In this document: one piece after another, positions 2,072 through 62,556 of the stretch
Layout of the letters: every line of letters starts with the position of its first letter
Position numbering within the stretch: the first letter of the stretch is position 1
DNA from: Eledone cirrhosa
Lineage: Eukaryota
Assembly: GCA_964016885.1 (NCBI GenBank)
Contig: OZ024751.1
Span: 38,812,001-38,876,000 of the forward strand
Reading direction: 5' to 3'
Length of the DNA stretch: 64,000 nucleotides
Notes under the pieces: model-generated
The model's input: the letters and a program-made list of their open reading frames with translations, nothing else
Told to the model about the DNA's origin: nothing
Database searches by the model: none
Translations under genes and position numbers: made by a program

Positions 2072-2483
<412 letters not shown>

Positions 2484-2681
2484 AACGAGTAGGACCCCGA
2501 CGGCTGAGCTCAAGCCGTTTCGACGGCTATTTCGACGGCTAATTCGTCCAGAATTAGCTGTCAAACGGCTTGAGCTCAGCCGTCGGGGTCCTACTCGTTC
2601 CTATTACCCACTCTACTACCCTAAGTATTGAGTACTTTGGTGCGTTATGGTCCACCTGGTTCCTTACCACATTTCCTTCGT

Positions 2682-2682
<1 letters not shown>
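2484..2682 (+). mobile_element. Fold-back PLE-derived element, family 1, copy A
   Basis: Short inverted arm 2484-2545 plus long arm ending TTCCTTCGTT-(AT)n; both ends in TA tracts; homologous to copies at 7424, 21748, 31583, 36381 and 62216. Confidence 0.85.
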
Positions 2683-2716
<34 letters not shown>

Positions 2717-2949
2717 ATATATATATATACAGTGATATGTGCATACATAAAGACACACTTTATATATACATATATATGTACATACATTGTTGCTATTTTG
2801 ATTTACGTAATCAGTTTTCATTCAACTTATATTTCCCTTGTAATTCTGTTGCTTACATTGCACTATGATATATTTTGTTGTGAATCGTACTTGAATTTTC
2901 AAACCATTTTTATTTAACTCCTCAAAACACTTTCTTCGTCTCCGTTAAA

Positions 2950-7349: not shown

Positions 7350-7423
<74 letters not shown>

Positions 7424-7425
<2 letters not shown>

Positions 7426-7532
7426 CGAAGGAAATGTGGTAAGGAACCAGGTGGACCATAACGCACCAAAGTACTCAATACCCAGAATTAGCCGTCGAAA
7501 CGGCTTGAGCTCAGCCGTCGGGGTCTTACTGG

Positions 7533-7535
<3 letters not shown>
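7424..7535 (-). mobile_element. Fold-back PLE-derived element, family 1, copy B (internally deleted)
   Basis: Distal long arm (AACGAAGG...CAATAC) is fused to the short arm (CCAGAATTAGCCGTCGAAAC...GGTTC); TA tracts on both sides. Confidence 0.85.
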
Positions 7536-7592
<57 letters not shown>

Positions 7593-8793
7593 CGTTACAT
7601 TCTCTACGGATATTATTGACAATACCGTTATAGAGATCTATTATATATACAACATATTAAAACGTGTTTCAGTACCGACTGGTGGGTGGCCGCACTAGCA
7701 GGCTTCCAGCCACAAACTATAAACAAAGGTTTTTCTAAATTTATGGAAGGTTGGAATTGCTAGAATTATTTAACGGTCGTTTCCTCAATAGTTGTTCTGC
7801 AAAGTATTACCTACACTCCTATTTTGATTTTAACATAATCGATGAACCTACGACAAGTTTAACCTTCAAAGAGTCTCCTTCTATAATTCCCACCTACTTC
7901 ATACGTTCGTCTATATTTTGATATGGACTGTCAGTGAAAGTGGTTTTCACCTCCATCTCACTGAATCTGATATACGAAGTAATATATACAATAGTATGTT
8001 GTTGAAAAATGAGTTACTCAATGGCAATGACCCCGTGGTAGATTTAGAAATTTTATTTTGTGGAACATTATACATATTTATTTATTTATACTCGCTTTTA
8101 GTTTAAACCAACGATCATATATTTCAATAAAAATATAATAGATATTAATTATTATTTATATGTTCCACTTCTGCATATTTTATGTAGGATTATTAATGAT
8201 ATATGCTTTGCTGTATATTAAACATGGTTATTTATTTTCGCCATTTTCGTACATAAAAGATTAAACGCTAGATCAGCAAATATGTAGAATTTACGATTTC
8301 TGTAAACATTTTTGTTAAAAATATATATAAAGAAACTTGAATATGTATAAAGATTTTGGTGTAATAAAATGCATATTTAGTTTGACATCATTTCATAAAT
8401 ATATTCAAAATATTACTACGTTCTTCAACTATCGATTCATATCTTAGTTGCCGTAATGCTCGGTCAGTGTCTGTTGTATGTCTACTAGAAAGATTAGAGA
8501 TAGACAATAGACATCAAATGAATGCGATGCTACGCTTCTATCTAAAGGACGGCGTCTTCAATCGGCAATCATTTTCTCGCAAGGGAACAAATAAAAGATA
8601 CAGACAAGACAGCTGTACGTTATCTAAATACATCATCTTCTTTCCATTGTATTTGAGATAATATAAACAAGAATACATTGTATAATATTTCTACAGTATT
8701 TGTGTAGGTAAATGACTGTGTTATTTTATAGAAATCTCATCAAATGAAGACCATCTTGTTAGAAACATTCCTTGCTTTTTCTATAAAACAATG

Positions 8794-9009: not shown

Positions 9010-9223
9010 ATGAATTGGCTGAATTGGTAGAGCGTCGCACAACATGCTTAGCAGCATAGAGTTACGTCCCTTTCCATTCTGAGTTAAAACTCCGCCGACG
9101 TTAGCTTTTCCTTTCATCAGTAAGAGGCCGATAGAATAAAGAACCAGTAATGCACTGGGGTCGATTTAATCGACTTACAATACATAATTTTTGGCCTTGT
9201 GCCTATTTCGGAAACCATTATTA
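9010..9223 (+). mobile_element. Nin-domain-like tRNA SINE
   Basis: A box TGGCTGAATTGG, degenerate B box GAGTTAAAACTCC, CCTTTCATC...GATAGAATAAAGAACCAGT core, GGCCTTGTGCC...(ATT)n tail. Confidence 0.8.
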
Positions 9224-9225
9224 TA

Positions 9226-9401
9226 GGGCGGTGGATTGGCAGTATCGGATTGCAGCATAGAGTTACGTCCCTTTACAGTTTGAGTTCAAATCCCGCCCAG
9301 GTTCACTTTGCCTTTCATCCTTACGGGGTCGATAAAATAAAGTACCAGTAATACACTGAGATAATTGCTGGCCTTGTTCCAAAAGTAGAAACCATTATTA
9401 C
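9226..9401 (+). mobile_element. Nin-domain-like tRNA SINE, same subfamily as 1402-1930
   Basis: TGGCAGTATCGG, GAGTTCAAATCCC, GCCTTTCATCCTTACGGGGTCGATAAAATAAAGTACCAGT; directly downstream of the previous SINE. Confidence 0.85.
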
Positions 9402-13710: not shown

Positions 13711-14939
13711 AAAAAAAAAGTAAAATAGCCGGAAAAATACCGCAAATGTTTCCTCCGACTTTCTAGGAAATTGTATTACTAATATATGTATTTCATTTTA
13801 TCTCTTATCAATTTGAATTCGTTCTTTCTAATCTACTGACTGTGTGATTTATAAGATAGAAAGCTTGTATTTAATAAGTTACCTATTATAGTAGATTGAG
13901 TATATATATATGTGTAAAGGTAACCGAAATATTGAACACATCTTGTTAGTGATACGTGTATATTTTCTATTGCTAATCAATTATAAATCCTCCTTTCTAA
14001 TCTACCAATTATGCAATTTGTAGGACGACAAATATTTATTTAACGACCTCATTATTATATCAATATAGTGGGAATATTAATATATTACAAGATTATGTAC
14101 AGTTGATTTGGTATATTACAAAACAAAATTGCAATTCCTATTAATAATCTGTATATTTTCTATTTGATCGCCTGTCGGCGTGAATTCCTGTGTGGCTGGT
14201 GCCATTAATATAGTAATTCCTTTAGTCCAACGAGAGAAGCACGATATACTGCTTAGGTTGGACAATATTACATAAATGGGATTGCGATAGTTAATGTTCA
14301 GAAATGATTAGTAATATAAAACATATGCAACATATATTCCATCCATTAGTTATAATCTATACGGCTTTATTCATAGTATGCTTAATTCACATTTCTGTCG
14401 AACCACATTACGACAGACTTCTCATATATATGAGGTCAAATAATATATAAATATATTTGTTACGGTTTGCTTCTTGTTTTGCAGCGAATAGAAGCCATAG
14501 GGGATAGTCAAACCCTACTGATTTTAGCATATTCCATTAAGTAGAGTAAGATTTATGCTGGTATTTTTCTACATATCTCTTCGCTGTATATACATCTGTT
14601 TCGGACACATTTTATTCAATTCTGAATGAAAAACCTATTTATAATCATAAGAGTATGTCAGCATAAATCAATATGCGTTTGAACTATAAATGAATCGTGT
14701 GAATGTGGCAACAAAATAGTCAAATGTTCCCCAGATCCAATCTTTATACGTTAAAAACAGAACATATTGGTTAATGTAGTTCTAAATATATTTTACTCTG
14801 ATATGAATAAAATATTTGTTGGTCATGGCAAGAAGTTATTTGTCCATGCTATATCTATGTTAAAGATAACACGGGAATAAATATAAAAAAAGATGAGTTA
14901 TAGTAATTGAGGTGATTCATTTTCAAACGAACGATTTCA

Positions 14940-15290
14940 TGCGTTACCCTTCAGCCTCGATACCCCAGTATTGTGGGCCTGGATGGTGTAGCGAAGCCTT
15001 CTTTTGTCTGTGAGAGCCCATGTGTTGGCTGCCTAATGGTCACACTGGAGAGAAACGACTAAACATGTGGCCCCGGACGATAGCGAGGGAGGTACTTTAG
15101 AATAGCCATTCCATCCCATGGGGATCCCTCCTGTGATACCAAGCTCTGACCAGATAGTTGTGAGTACTGATGTTATCCGAGGGGGAAGAAAGCCGTAGGT
15201 CTCCACTGCTCCAGGTTCGACCAGAAACATATCGAAGAGCGACCGATATTTAGAAGTTAAAATGCCCCAGCCAAGAATAGATATCAAAAT
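14940..15290. mobile_element. GC-richer island, probably a TE (LINE UTR-like) fragment; family unassigned
   Basis: Abrupt compositional shift; no recognisable peptide motif. Confidence 0.3.
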
Positions 15291-15658
15291 CTAAAACTCG
15301 TTTTACAGATTGATCAACAGTGTCTCTGCGCCTTTGCCTAAAATATTGATCGCAAATCAAGCCACATATTTAACAGCAGCAATTAATTTACGATCCCGTA
15401 GATTGTCATTCTATTTGATTAGCTTTCTAATCACAGCAGAACGCCGCAACTAATGACAACCAAACCATATATATATTGTTATACTTTGGGAGGGTCATGT
15501 TGCCAATAAGAAACACACGCACCAGTTGCTTTCACTTCAATTTATTATATATTTATAAATTTATAAATTTACAAATCTATAAACCTATAAATTTCTGGTT
15601 GGTTGGTTGGTTCCACAACCAGATAGTTGTTTATATATAGTCATAGTCCTTTTCGTCA

Positions 15659-15757
15659 ATGTTTAGGCAAATTACAGAGGCAGTAAGCATAAAATAATTA
15701 CAACCAAAATTAAATAGAAAATATGAGTGGAACAGCAACATCACAACTTACAATTAA
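15659..15757 (+). pseudogene. C-terminal remnant of a PLE GIY-YIG endonuclease
   Basis: Translates MFRQITEAVSIK*LQPKLNRKYEWNSNITTYN*, matching the R..xEA..I...P.LN motif that carries the conserved Glu and Asn of GIY-YIG domains; one internal stop. Confidence 0.75.
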
Positions 15758-15965
15758 GGACAAAATGAAAACACACACAGGACAAAATGAAAACACACAC
15801 ACACACATAGAACAAACAACTTACAATTAAGGACAAAATGAAAACACACACAGGACAAAATGAAAACACACACACACACATAGAACAAACAACTTACAAT
15901 TAAGGACAAAATGAAAACACACACAGGACAAAATGAAAACACACACACACATAGAACAAACAACC
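15744..15965 (+). repeat. Three-copy tandem repeat (about 72 bp) at the PLE ORF end / 3' UTR
   Basis: CAACTTACAATTAAGGACAAAATGAAAACACACACAGGACAAAATGAAAAC(AC)nATAGAACAAA repeated three times. Confidence 0.9.
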
Positions 15966-16137
15966 AACCAACAATAAATAAATAAATAAATAAATAAACA
16001 AATAGATAAATGAACACAAACACACACAGACACCCGGATGTGGCGCATGCGCAAACTGAGCACACAACACGCACACAGAAACAAAATGGCGTAGGATAGA
16101 AGAAAGGAAAGGCACAGAAACAAAGAAAGGAATCCCC

Positions 16138-16182
16138 AGTCACTGAAGAGGTCACAGAGTGTGTGACGAAAGGACTATGACT
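16138..16182 (+). ncRNA. Minimal type I hammerhead ribozyme (complete core)
   Basis: AGTCA-CTGAAGA-g-GTCACA(gagtg)TGTGAC-GAAA-ggac-TA-TGACT: 5-bp stem I, CUGANGA, 6-bp stem II, 1-bp stem III; predicted cleavage after A16177. Confidence 0.85.
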
Positions 16183-16639
16183 ATATATAAACAACTATCT
16201 GGTTGTGGAACCAACCAACCAACCAGAAATTTATAGGTTTATAGATTTGTAAATTTATAAATTTATAAATATATAATAAATTGAAGTGAAACAACTGGTG
16301 CGTGTGTTTCTTATTGGCAACATGACCCTCCCAAAGTATAACAATATCGGTTTCAACACACGATTTCAGATAAAGAATCTTGCTAAACAAATTCAGAAAC
16401 GAAATATATATATATATAAATATTTATTTATATGTTTATATGTGTGTATGTATATATATATAAAGAGAAAGGAAGAGAGAGTAATAGAAAAAATAGAGAG
16501 AGATAAGTGTGCACATGTATGTATGAAGATATCTATCTGTATATATATATATATATATGTGGGGGGGGGTATGTGGGTGTGAGTGTGTATGTGTGTGTTG
16601 TGTGTGTGTATATATTTATATATGCACTTATTTGTGTGC

Positions 16640-19769: not shown

Positions 19770-19950
19770 TGCATTATTTGTTCTGGCTCTTTACATTCTA
19801 ATTTCCAAGCCCGCCGTGGGTAACTTTGTCTTTCATCCTTACGGCCTCGATAAAATAAAGAACCTGTAACGAACTGACGTCGATGTAATCGACTTCCCCC
19901 TCGCCCCAATTTGTTGGCCATGTGTCTAGGTTAGAAACCACTTTTATTAA
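19770..19950 (+). mobile_element. Decayed Nin-like SINE
   Basis: TTTCATCCTTACGGCCTCGATAAAATAAAG...GTCGATGTAATCGAC...TTAGAAACC. Confidence 0.7.
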
Positions 19951-21688: not shown

Positions 21689-21701
21689 GTATATATATAT
21701 G

Positions 21702-21747
<46 letters not shown>

Positions 21748-21749
<2 letters not shown>

Positions 21750-21932
21750 AACCAGTAAGACCCCGACAGCTGAGCTCAAGCCGTTTCGACGGCTAATTCC
21801 AGAATTAGCCGTCGAAACGGCTTGAGCTCAGCTGTCGGGGACTTACTGGTTCCTATTACCCACTCTACTACCTCAAGTATTGAGTACTTTGGTGCGTTAT
21901 GGTCCACCTGGTTCCTTACCACATTTCCTTCG

Positions 21933-21934
<2 letters not shown>
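21748..21934 (+). mobile_element. Fold-back PLE-derived element, family 1, copy C
   Basis: Palindrome centred near 21800; GAAA at 21814-21817, stem III around the TGAGCTCA palindrome, GTC at 21834-21836; TA flanks. Confidence 0.9.
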
Positions 21935-22020
<86 letters not shown>

Positions 22021-22645: not shown

Positions 22646-22695
<50 letters not shown>

Positions 22696-22699
22696 TAAT

Positions 22700-23256
<557 letters not shown>

Positions 23257-31418: not shown

Positions 31419-31526
31419 AATTTATTCCGGTTTCAATCGGGGGTAACCACAGTAAGTAAGGCACTGAATACAAAGCAGAATATAAATATTTAATATAGAA
31501 AAGGCTTCACATTTATTATTATTACT

Positions 31527-31582
<56 letters not shown>

Positions 31583-31584
<2 letters not shown>

Positions 31585-31726
31585 CGAAGGAAATGTGGTA
31601 AGGAACCAGGTGGACCATAACGCACCAAAGTACTCAATACTTGAGGTAGTAGAGTGGGTAATAGGAACCAGTAGGACTCCGACAGCTGAGCTCAAGCCGT
31701 TTTGACGGCTAATTCTGGACGCAGTT

Positions 31727-31729
<3 letters not shown>
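31583..31729 (-). mobile_element. Fold-back PLE-derived element, family 1, copy D (short arm mostly deleted)
   Basis: Full long arm to AATTCTGGAC, then only GTTCCT of the short arm; TA flanks. Confidence 0.85.
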
Positions 31730-31779
<50 letters not shown>

Positions 31780-35202: not shown

Positions 35203-36332
35203 AACCTATATGAATTTCTCAGCGCCTCTACGCTTTTGTTTCGATGCAATAGTGATGGCGTCAGACAAATGAAAAGTTGCGTGAGCGTTGCATGAAAACA
35301 GGTCTGGTGTATATTAAATCAAATGTTTTTATGCAGCAAAAGTAGAGTTATTTCATATATTTACAGTGGCAATATTTCATTCTTTTGGCGCCACACAACT
35401 ACAAATCAGTCAGTATTGCTAAAAAGGTCAACGGCTTAGATGATTAGGCAGTCAAAACATTTTAATGTTTTCGGTGTCTTTTTCCACTTTTTCCACTGAA
35501 GATCTTAAATATACTTGATGGTATCGAAATTGAAAAATTCACTTAATCTGACGAAATTTTCAATACATAAGTCATTTATATAGTTTGACTGTGTGAAAAT
35601 TATTTTATAAACTTCCTTTGCTTTTCGTTCTTCACATTAAATTATCTAGTATTATTACTTTTGTTTTGCTTTGCTTTTCATGTTATTCTCGTCCGATGTT
35701 TCGCCTTTACAATGTTGTATTAGATCGAACAGCCTATATAAATCCTCTTATCATATTGATTTTTAAACTTGAATATCAAATATAAAGGAGCTCGCTTCCA
35801 TATCTACATAGAAACAAACATCCAAATCGATTGATCAATTGTTTGCTCAAATCCATAAAAATACTACACAATGTATAGTCTTCACAATACAACATATATC
35901 TAACGTTCAGCCACCAAGCTCCTCAGTGATATTAACTATTGTCTATCACTTGCATTCTTTATCCTCCTCACTTTCTCTGTATCTATCTATATATCCATGC
36001 ATCTATATCAATTCTGTACACACACAAGCACACTCTCTCACTCACACATATTTATATGTATGTGTATGTGTGTGTTTGTGTGTGTGTATGTGTGTGTGTA
36101 AATAAGTAAATACAAAAAGAGTTTCGTAAATAAATATTTATAGGTATTTACCTATTGTACTACGTGTTTATCTATTTCAAAATCTATGCTCAAACACAGA
36201 CGGACATCTATATATATTCTTCCTGCTTTCACAGACTCAAATATATATTCAAATGTATATATTATTTTTTCTTTTGTTATTATTCCTCTTTTATAGAGCT
36301 GCCCTATTGCTTGCATTCACTCACACACACAC

Positions 36333-36380
<48 letters not shown>

Positions 36381-36384
<4 letters not shown>

Positions 36385-36554
36385 TATGACCCTGACGGCA
36401 GAGCTCAAGTCGTCTCGACGGATATTTCTGGACTAAATTAGAATATTTAGTCTGGTGTCGGGGTCATACTTTTCCTATTACCCACTCTATTAGCCCAAGT
36501 ATTGAGTATTCTGGTGCGTTATGGTCCATCTGGTTCTTTACTACAACTCCTTCG

Positions 36555-36556
<2 letters not shown>
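36381..36556 (+). mobile_element. Fold-back PLE-derived element, family 1, copy E (diverged, longer hairpin tip)
   Basis: Homologous long arm; centre GACTAAAT-tagaat-ATTTAGTC; the GAAA segment of the long arm is deleted; TA flanks. Confidence 0.8.
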
Positions 36557-36615
<59 letters not shown>

Positions 36616-36930
36616 CATACACACACATACACACACAAGGAGACGGCAACGTTATGTTTGCCAGCTGAGGAGACATGGTCAAAGTGAAAAAAATCCTTTG
36701 GCTCTCACCACTTCGTCTGAATCAGTCGAGTCACATATTTAAATCAAAGGACCATCAATTTGGAAGGTCATCAGTTTTGAGTCGATATAATAAAGTATTG
36801 TATTGGTGTCGAACGCAACAGACTCTACTTGCACTGAAAGTCTGTTGTCTTATGTTTGTGTGGAGAAAACTATTTATGTATCATCATCATCATCATCATC
36901 ATTTTACGTCCGTTTTTCCCTGCTTGCAAG

Positions 36931-53680: not shown

Positions 53681-53848
53681 GGATTTTAATGGATACAGTT
53701 TAGTTAAAAGGAATTTTTATTGACACGTGTTTCTATAACAGTTGCATAACCTGAAAACAGCTGCTATCTACAAAGTATTAGTTATGCAGACATTCAATAT
53801 TTCAATGTTATTATCAACTGTCATTTCATCGGAATATATATATATATA

Positions 53849-54200
53849 TTAGAAAGTGAGGTTTATTTTACAAAATGAAAAATAACCGGTGTCCTAGACG
53901 AGTGAAAGTATAAAAAAAAAAGATGAAATCGAAAATGCAACTGGAGTCGTATTTTTTTTTTAAATATATATATTTATTTGGTTCCTTTACCGGTTTCGCA
54001 GTTCTTCTGCTTTTCAAAAGTAGAGTTGAGATGGAGGGTCTGTGGTTTTTCTCACATCTGTGAGAAAAACCATAGACCCTCCATCTCATCTCTACTTTTG
54101 AAAAGCAGAAGAACTGCGAAACCGGTAAAGGAACCAAATAAATATATATATTTTTTTAAAAAGTAAGACTCCAGTTGCATTTTCGATTTCATCTTTTTTT

Positions 54201-54204
<4 letters not shown>
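53849..54204 (-). mobile_element. Fold-back PLE-derived element, family 2, copy B
   Basis: Same ends and architecture as 22700-23058; 2-nt loop TC at 54057-54058. Confidence 0.9.
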
Positions 54205-54261
<57 letters not shown>

Positions 54262-60352: not shown

Positions 60353-62215
60353 ACACATATATTTGATTGATTTTTGTCTCAACTGTCCGTTCTGTTATCA
60401 CGAGACAATATTAAAATAAGGAAATGATAACACTTACTGAAACAAGCTGGCAAAGTCAAGGGTTTCCTTTAGGTTCTCCATATTTTTCTTCGTTTGTAAC
60501 CTGCTATTTAGATTTAGCGTACGTGGTCTGAATTTATTCAACGTATCATACAATGTGTTGCAATATACATATATTTATATCGTTATATGGCATAAATGCA
60601 TTTGAACATATCATTTCAGAGTAGATTGTATACGCGCATCGTTATATAAGAATATAAATAGAGTTACCTGCATTGTTACATGATACATAGCGACATTTAA
60701 TTTCAAATCTGTATAGTACCAACGTGGCATAGTAAATATATATATATATAATAGATGTTATATAGACCTTCCATTCAATGTATATATATATATATACTAA
60801 TAATAATAATTATTATTATTATTAGTAGTAGTATATATATATATAATGTGTGTGAGTAGTATATACATGCATTATTATATACATATATTCTCACAACAAT
60901 CAGTTCCAATTAATCTTACAAAATAAAGTGTAAATTTATTTTTCATTCTATTCTGTTTCAAAGATGACAACTTTAATTCCAAATTAATTTTAATTACATT
61001 CAAAAACCCCCACTTTACATGACATAATACTATAATTTAATCTATTGTTTCATACAAAAATTACGCTTATCAATTTCTATTTTTTGTTAATTAGCTCAAT
61101 TAAACACATAAAGAAACATAAAATATTATATTACATTTATACAGAATTCATAATTTAGACGTATAAATCAAACTTTTATAACCAGTTATAATGTTCATAC
61201 CAAAAGCCTGTAAATTGTTAACGGTTGTGATATTTGAGATAATGAATAAACGTTCAAGGAATGGTAGTTGTCGTCGTCAAGATTGTGAAACTATGTCTTG
61301 CAAAATTACGATTTATCCTCCGTCCATGTCGACGACGAGCTATCAATTATCCGATCAGCTAAACGTCCAACTCATGAAATAACATGTAAATGTTTGAATA
61401 TTTCAGAGATACATGTCTCTTTTTTGTGTTATTCTGAAGAAGATTGTCAGTGGCATAATATTTGATGAGTCTGGACATGTAAATCACTGGTATTATTCCC
61501 AAGACAAACTCTCAACACAGTTTAACATCGAACTAATTTATCTCTTAAGTATAATAAGAAAGTATCAATGGGACAGATCAATTCTCATGACACCATGCAT
61601 TTTGATCGAAGTTGACGTCATAGTTAGGAGGCGAATGTTTATCGATTAAACCATGCCTGGATTTATTTGCATAACAATTGCCTCTTATTAAATTACAGCA
61701 GATAAATTCTGCACAAACTAACATGTTTAACTACATTCCAACGCGAACATAAAAAATGCAGATATCTATACAGCAGTAACATAATAACCCAATACTTTAT
61801 ATACACATAAACAATTTCGTTTTATATTCTAACTTTTACACATTTAATACCCATTATTTAATACCCATCTCATTTTATTCTATTTCCCCTTAAAGTGGAA
61901 TTCTACAAACAATTAATTTAGTAATACAATTAGAAGGACTTTGTCCCGGTTTATAAATCAATAAATATATGGAAAAGATATAAGTATGAATTTATGGTGG
62001 AGTCAGAAAGATCCTTATTGCAAGTTTTGTCTTACATATCATTTTCATAGTTTATATTTTCTATTTTCTATTGAATAAGTATTTCACAAAGAATTAATGA
62101 TTACATTTGAATAAATGCCTTTCTATAAAAACAAAATATCATATCAAAGTTCACATCTACAGTTATATTTAAGTGTAGTAAAGGCAGCACTGGCAAATGG
62201 AATGCATATATATAT

Positions 62216-62410
62216 AACGAAGGAATTGTGGTAAGGAACCAGATGGACCATACGCACCAAAGTACTCAATACTTAGGGTAGTAGAGTAGGTAATGGGAAC
62301 AAGTATGGACCCCGAGGGCAGAGCCCAAGCCGTTTCGACGACTAATTCTGGAGTCCAGAATTAGCCGTCCAAACGGCTTGAGCTCTGCCGTCGGGGTCAT
62401 ACTTGTTCCT
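62216..62410 (-). mobile_element. Fold-back PLE-derived element, family 1, copy F
   Basis: Long arm 62216-62352, centre CTGGA-G-TCCAG, short arm ending GTTCCT-(AT)n. Confidence 0.85.
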
Positions 62411-62556
62411 ATATATATATATATATAGTAAGGTGCATTATTGGTTGTGGAAAATGGTCCAATAACTTTATGTTAGCAATATTAAGTTCCCCACGCTTTT
62501 GTATATCTCCAATTCCATTCGAGGGAACAGCTAGATGATGTAAAACGGAGTATAAG

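Follow-up and report, generated by a model that had tools for sequence, protein, structure and literature searches.

A dead two-armed copy of a (TA)n-targeting Penelope-like retrotransposon in Eledone cirrhosa, probably inserted by twin priming

The insertion at positions 15467-16418 of the window (the whole analysed stretch of 64,000 nucleotides of Eledone cirrhosa DNA, contig OZ024751.1, positions 38,812,001 to 38,876,000 of the forward strand) is a dead, 5′-truncated, two-armed copy of an abundant Penelope-like retrotransposon (PLE) that targets (TA)n. The identity of the element, its fixed ends, a near-strict pairing of one arm of each kind and A>G marks shared between arms support insertion by twin priming, whereby a single sense RNA would be reverse transcribed from each of the two cut DNA ends; we consider this the probable mechanism. 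As a locus it is unremarkable, being one of some 15,000 dead PLE fragments, and all its parts are already published: inverted pseudo-LTR, one-sided tail, hammerhead ribozyme motif (HHR) and (TA)n bias are described for PLEs in PMC8557442. Repeat libraries may already list this family as a Penelope without a name of its own, and the possibly new part is mechanistic, namely the pairing rule and the arm-shared A>G marks.

The two arms are joined 5′ end to 5′ end between remnants of the (TA)n target (15467-15476 on the left, whose final ATAT is common to the tail-less arm end, and 16404-16418 on the right). The tail-less inverted arm (15473-15658, minus strand) corresponds to 16164-16347 read on the opposite strand, apart from two single-base indels (blastn: 186 columns, 98.9%), in agreement with the first-pass annotation, made from the letters alone, which had described an inverted copy of about 185 bp at the 5′ end that begins at 16164 within the 3′ strand of HHR stem II. 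Compared with the intact copy, the arm-arm junction (15657-15658) has a 2-nt microhomology, CA/TG. The tailed sense arm (15657-16407, plus strand) comprises the ORF end, 3′ UTR, putative promoter, HHR, 5′ UTR and ORF start, as seen from 91-99% matches to 29 other loci and from the intact copy L155; it runs 56 nt further than the inverted arm before (TA)n, or 60 nt including the ATAT common to the target, close to the 55 nt first noted. At its beginning lie the last 32 codons of the RT-GIY-YIG ORF (15659-15757, plus strand; translation MFRQITEAVSIK*LQPKLNRKYEWNSNITTYN*), found as reported with one internal TAA. This remnant is identical at 31 of 32 residues to the C-terminus of the intact ORF (P0001 1185-1216) and retains conserved E, I and N, the residues E112, I116 and N124 of this region being invariant among 37 aligned relatives. 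The internal stop is private to the window copy (codon GAA in 140 of 145 matches from the fetched loci, TAA in 1). A 73-nt unit is present in three copies in the 3′ UTR (15743-15961, plus strand), and its number varies across the family, with one unit in 68, two in 18 and three in 3 of 89 family matches. The final 85 nt of the sense arm (16323-16407), overlooked in the first-pass annotation, encode the ORF N-terminus MTLPKYNNIGFNTRFQIKNLAKQIQKRN, circularly permuted to the 3′ end; the initiating ATG corresponds to window 16323, so that the element terminates at its 3′ side in the beginning of its own ORF, and in the tandem copies L151 and L155 this segment runs into the full ORF. Immediately to the left of the insertion, 14900-15470 is GC-richer, unmatched by the family reference and possibly another repeat. 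Elsewhere in the window, 1407-1938, 9011-9399 and 19786-19947 hold a tandemly repeated sequence of about 200 nt that also has dispersed relatives and is not related to the Penelope-like element.

A DNA search of the 3.0-Gb genome, in which the window lies on G000:C11, gave 66 scored matches from 1,797 candidates, and an RT + GIY-YIG ORF was found upstream of most of them, so that longer copies do carry the RT. In L155 (G000:C2:154546000-154553500), an intact 1,216-aa ORF (L155:2002-5649, minus strand) lies within a partial tandem and is preceded by a partial tandem copy; L151 and L253 are likewise partial tandems. This single ORF has a PLE-type RT with DKS, motif A, B′ and YVDD. Its C-terminal 137 aa scored 24 bits against GIY-YIG PF01541 (cut-off 22.6), and RVT_1 was detected at E 1.2e-4, under the curated cut-off. 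Such Pfam domains appeared only in excised parts of this protein and of the Hydra-clade ORF described below; the full sequences of both gave none at E≤0.1. Likewise the 32-aa remnant alone had zero Pfam matches at E≤0.1, and tblastn of the intact 1,216-aa protein against the window gave zero matches. With these results the initial description of a 5′-truncated Penelope-like element with GIY-YIG tail, HHR and inverted pseudo-LTR is borne out. The family protein had no match in a PDB sequence search and 93 homologues, nearly all unnamed, the best being an Octopus vulgaris predicted protein (70%). Among 37 relatives the CCHH, R, H, E and N of the C-terminal GIY-YIG are invariant, and the CX4CxxC linker that precedes it has 7 residues from CxxC to the next Cys, a spacing seen in 39 of 56 pattern-matching proteins (94 proteins scanned). 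Residues ~245-420 of the L155 ORF form a long Asn/Thr/His-rich stretch that recalls the N-rich inserts of PMC3846280. In one Octopus gene model (P0085, dynein regulatory complex subunit 6-like) the first ~150 aa are a related PLE RT, and this model is probably an annotation fusion.

In its architecture the family resembles canonical C-terminal EN+ PLEs (Penelope/Poseidon, Neptune, Nematis; PMC8557442): a single RT + C-terminal GIY-YIG ORF, partial tandems forming pseudo-LTRs, an inverted 5′-truncated copy, a tail at one end, an HHR in the pseudo-LTR, and an ORF start inside pseudo-LTR and tail (also PMC3846280). It differs from them in a tail of 60 nt, where theirs is 30-40 nt (PMC8557442), in a long Asn/Thr-rich N-terminal ORF region, in DKS where they have DKG, and in RT motifs A to B′ that span ~130 aa, ~70 above the Nematis, Penelope and Neptune rows (Fig. 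S1, PMC8557442). Several clades could be set aside by their traits. Naiad/Chlamys, of which Naiad was initially suggested by the (TA)n targets, have an N-terminal GIY-YIG and no canonical HHR; Naiad was rejected because the EN here is C-terminal, and an HHR is present. Penelope/Poseidon elements are without a Zn-finger linker, whereas the family has CX4CxxC; the Neptune rows have a linker of ~20-30 residues against 7 here (Fig. S2, PMC8557442); and the Hydra clade traits (DKT, CxCX5C linker, no CCHH) are not those of the window copy's family. A non-LTR retrozyme was also rejected, the copy having one complete HHR, coding remnants at both ends and an autonomous parent. In Fig. S2 of PMC8557442 the three rows labelled Nematis have a CX4CxxC linker and, as here, 7 residues up to the following Cys. 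Since the nematode (Nematis) rows lack the ~70-aa insertion between RT motifs A and B′, we call the clade only provisionally Nematis-like, from comparison by eye with the Fig. S1/S2 rows of PMC8557442; a search of that supplement with clade motifs gave no labelled relative of the family.

The HHR at 16138-16182 (plus strand), reported as complete from the start, is a minimal type I motif in which the core and helices I and II are conserved. In order, it consists of stem I (AGUCA/UGACU), CUGAAGA, a single additional G, stem II (GUCACA/UGUGAC), GAAA, GGAC and UA. It fits the min-HHRs of metazoan PLEs, for which opposite-strand pairs 100-700 bp apart were already noted (PMC4209133), in being type I with a 5-bp helix I, a long helix II, a vestigial helix III, an unpaired base between 9 and 10.1, and G10.1-C11.1. 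The difference from them lies in loop III, here GGAC or GAAC, an imperfect palindrome, so that a dimer helix would hold two central mismatches. The predicted cut follows A16177, and helix III is too short for a monomer. An Rfam scan of the window at gathering score returned 0 matches, HHR included, and the unconstrained fold of 16125-16195 was not unusual (z −0.80) and did not adopt the HHR shape, both being expected because helix III is vestigial. Across subfamilies the core is well kept (138 arms tabulated). Four of 95 arms end at the predicted cut (16175-16178). Genome-wide, cut-site junctions gave 46 pattern matches, ~32 of them true once 14 variants with small indels had been set aside (30 matches were inspected, and 16 were judged on six bases), compared with 11 matches (4 independent events) for a non-TA control and 77 (~67 after removing 10) for a TA control. 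Normalised to the sampled denominators (15, 10 and 44), cut site, non-TA and TA had rates of 2.1, 0.4 and 1.5, respectively, an excess at the predicted cut of ~5-fold over the non-TA control but only 1.4-fold over the TA-site control; TA microhomology could also account for it, and the two are not separable. The hammerhead would seem to be a passenger in the pseudo-LTR that does not set the fold-back point.

A 49-mer of the young subfamily matched 438 arms, and the ends of the first 100 were mapped. They accumulate at 16061-16087 (21 of 79 at risk against 3.7 expected, P 6e-10), while 16155-16174 took 1 of 91 at risk against 2.8 expected (4 of 138 in the two-armed sample) and 16175-16187 took 9 of 100. 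The peak falls among three plus-strand motifs, CCGGATGT (16034-16041), GCGCATGCGC (16043-16052) and AAAATGGCG (16083-16091), which we take to be ETS, NRF1 and YY1 sites. From the motif positions and the arm-end peak, 16034-16091 (plus strand) is a putative internal promoter, and because the peak falls among these motifs we place the likely RNA start at 16061-16087.

Six other fold-backs in the window (2447-2729, 7352-7597, 21698-22006, 31526-31778, 36323-36632 and 62206-62427) are copies of a Hydra-clade PLE family that has a tail-less and a tailed end. They represent the commonest palindromes of the window, with their own pair of 3′ ends and a 31-mer that has 30,777 genome matches. Long copies (L317, L319) encode a PLE with DKT, CxCX5C and CxxC/CxH, which are Hydra traits (PMC8557442), and the HHR of these fold-backs has a U3-A8 core, described in PMC4209133, and a long helix II. 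By blastp the Hydra-clade ORF had no match to the ORF of the family studied here, and at the nucleotide level four stretches of window fold-back shared only 11-14-nt AT words with the window element. The commonest palindromes are PLE products of a separate family, with a Hydra-clade parent; the claim that the window copy ties the palindromes to PLEs is accordingly right as to PLE origin and wrong as to the window copy being the link. A second fold-back family (22684-23112 and 53834-54259) has a complete minimal hammerhead in each arm, with a U3-A8 core and a palindromic CCGG helix III. Other, divergent Hydra-type ORFs (L324, L332, L333) are found close to the fold-backs that were retrieved, and the (TA)n niche is therefore common to several PLE families.

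The first-pass annotation had placed the breakpoint of the inverted copy, in stem II of the hammerhead, in one zone with that of the ORF-less palindromes, which would make stem II their common fold-back or stop point. The window copy does end there at 16164 and L002 at 16163, and Hydra-family fold-backs start in loop II of their own HHR (21 of 30 arm starts lie ≤12 nt upstream of the pattern, at TTAGTC), but the scarcity of ends at 16155-16174 in both samples given above contradicts a common breakpoint zone. In the Hydra family, moreover, the start lies 29 nt after TATTTAAATA, which we take to be a TATA box with TTAGTC as an Inr-like site, and the second fold-back family is centred ~40 nt upstream of its complete HHR. 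A stem II stop point is thus scarcely credible, the least probable of the readings weighed here.

Two fixed 3′ ends bound the arms of the family, both within the ORF start, 60 nt apart and each AATAT before CG in the intact copy. The putative priming site 1 (16343-16347, plus strand) is the tail-less end, and the 60-nt tail (16348-16407, plus strand) ends at the putative priming site 2. Both are beyond chance: exact genome matches with TA next to them number 14,651 for the tail-less end and 12,293 for the tailed end, and 0 for the reversed controls. Pairing was classified by hand at 90 loci fetched from the first 100 tail-less ends listed: the partner was a tailed arm at 69 and another tail-less arm at 1, while 20 loci had no partner or were unresolved. 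One arm of each kind, joined 5′-to-5′, was therefore present in 69 of 70 two-armed insertions, and independent choice of site is rejected (P about 1e-22). Among 30 tailed-end loci, which overlap the first sample and several of which run out of the locus, none had a tailed partner. The tail-less arm extended further 5′ in 41 of 69 insertions and the tailed arm in 18, whereas 10 were centred within 10 nt; arms were without any overlap in 15 of 69, the tailed arm was confined to the tail in 15, and the ORF 3′ end was missing from both arms in 49. Arm lengths were correlated (Spearman 0.53). In 28 other, unedited insertions, 121 arm-arm differences stood against 13 shared private variants, and so arms are not homogenised over time. 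Mini-insertions of 40-60 nt in (TA)n were also seen (L049, L051, L106, L127, L131, L148-L150), made up of ~30 nt of tail-less arm and 5-20 nt of tail; L049, L149 and L150 reuse an almost identical microhomology junction.

This geometry bears on a snap-back origin, in which the cDNA from the tailed site folds and copies itself, the hairpin is resolved at site 1 by the EN, and the arms become unequal through subsequent deletions spanning the palindrome centre. Snap-back predicts one-of-each pairing and shared marks, would give near-perfect palindromes such as the 10 centred insertions, which count against twin priming, and agrees with PMC8557442, where the tail is ascribed to EN-mediated resolution. 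Given the longer tail-less arms and the non-overlapping ones, however, most insertions would need a later deletion under snap-back. Two further observations on A>G marks described below oppose it: the tail-less arm of L253 includes a whole unedited unit, impossible for cDNA primed at the edited tailed end, and one solo tail-less arm carries A>G marks of its own. We therefore regard snap-back as unlikely, though it is the strongest of the rivals to twin priming.

Evidence on the template came from a screen of 286 loci, which supplied 390 aligned and partly redundant pieces. On the sense strand, dense clusters of A>G changes were found in four insertions (L102, L232, L253 and L337, on G000 C1 and C2), and comparable T>C, G>A or C>T clusters in none of the 390 pieces, save one old copy whose T>C cluster was matched by as many A>G. 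The marks are common to both arms at 38 of 38 sites in L232, 27 of 29 in L102 and 37 of 38 in L253, and in L232 the sharing spans 833 nt despite an unpaired spacer of 2.4 kb; L337 is without a partner arm and uninformative on sharing. The three patterns are largely distinct (1, 12 and 20 positions in common), and a 24-mer taken from the L102 pattern has just two genome matches, one in each arm of L102 itself, indicating that the pattern does not stem from an amplified edited master. In L102 the marks destroy the hammerhead core. The edited sites have a 5′ A/T neighbour bias (0.10/0.09 vs 0.04) in agreement with the 5′-neighbour preference of ADAR, and we infer that the clusters are ADAR edits fixed by reverse transcription.

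Arm-shared marks, carried by three insertions, point to twin priming on a single sense RNA rather than to snap-back or to antisense or circular templates. In L253 the tail-less arm reads a full unit, whose pseudo-LTR has 0 of 37 marks, and then a marked upstream partial unit, and the tailed arm matches the upstream unit. The two ends thus derive from different tandem units separated by ~4 kb, which means that the sites used are not necessarily a neighbouring pair. L253 fits a linear tandem RNA primed at two places and speaks against a circle, an antisense template and a snap-back that starts from the tailed cDNA. For inverted and tandem PLE structures, published proposals include antisense self-priming (PMC3846280) and copying of a hammerhead-made circular RNA (PMC4209133), and the well-kept HHR core counts in their favour; the clusters, however, are A>G and not T>C on the sense strand, and a circle read twice would repeat the marks, whereas of the two pseudo-LTRs of L253 the upstream one bears marks and the downstream one has 0 of the 37. 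Together these two templates are very improbable. Somewhat less so, but still improbable, is the use of two RNAs, one per protein subunit, with marks shared through arm-to-arm copying during repair. A dimeric protein could bind two RNAs, and a few marks do differ between arms (L102, 2 of 29 sites; L253, 1 of 38); on the other hand, all three edited two-armed insertions share almost all marks, in L232 even over the long interval given above, unedited pairs diverge independently, and strict one-of-each pairing is left without a reason.

Under twin priming, the RT-GIY-YIG protein, probably dimeric, would cut both strands of a (TA)n tract, and the 3′ ends would pair via ATAT, one at site 1 (16347) and one at site 2 (16407). 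Each cDNA could stop anywhere (here at 16164 and 15657) or alternatively run off the RNA 5′ end at the internal promoter (16061-16087), which would yield ORF-less arms, and the two cDNA ends would be joined by microhomology. The same name is used for L1, where the second target end primes internally on the same RNA and the two cDNAs are joined by microhomology; there the parts are non-overlapping and the second site is not fixed, whereas the present family has fixed sites for both ends and overlapping arms, one stretch of RNA being copied twice.

The closest biochemical parallel is PAc, the Poseidon PLE of Anolis (PMC11167929), which cuts and extends both DNA strands at AT-rich targets, has two initiation sites in the ORF start that bound the tail, and is a predicted dimer. 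Its initiation without target homology and its similar start site on both strands count against the twin-priming model, whereas here both sites end in ATAT matching (TA)n; the part of PMC11167929 covered does not report coupling of the two sites or use of one RNA. Further limits are that the same-RNA argument is carried by three insertions, that 20 of 90 loci had no resolved partner, and that a one-time repair copying one arm onto the other at insertion would likewise share marks. The pairing rule, the one-RNA inference and edited genomic PLE copies were not found in mainly open literature, which is weak evidence of novelty.

Published views of PLE integration invoke endonuclease resolution (PMC8557442), antisense self-priming (PMC3846280) or circular RNA (PMC4209133), and PMC11167929 leaves the later steps unvalidated. 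We lean, with somewhat less confidence than for twin priming as such, to the wider proposal that PLE integration is obligatory asymmetric twin priming, in which both ends of a double-strand cut would receive one RNA, always one at the inner and one at the outer site, the inverted pseudo-LTR and the one-sided tail would be two cDNAs of one molecule, ADAR marks would serve as natural single-molecule barcodes, and promoter run-off would account for tens of thousands of ORF-less palindromes. The family is young and numerous enough to test PLE integration, and an intact natural ORF exists that is usable for a direct assay of it. If the proposal is true, many short (TA)n-flanked palindromes would be reclassified as direct PLE insertion products.
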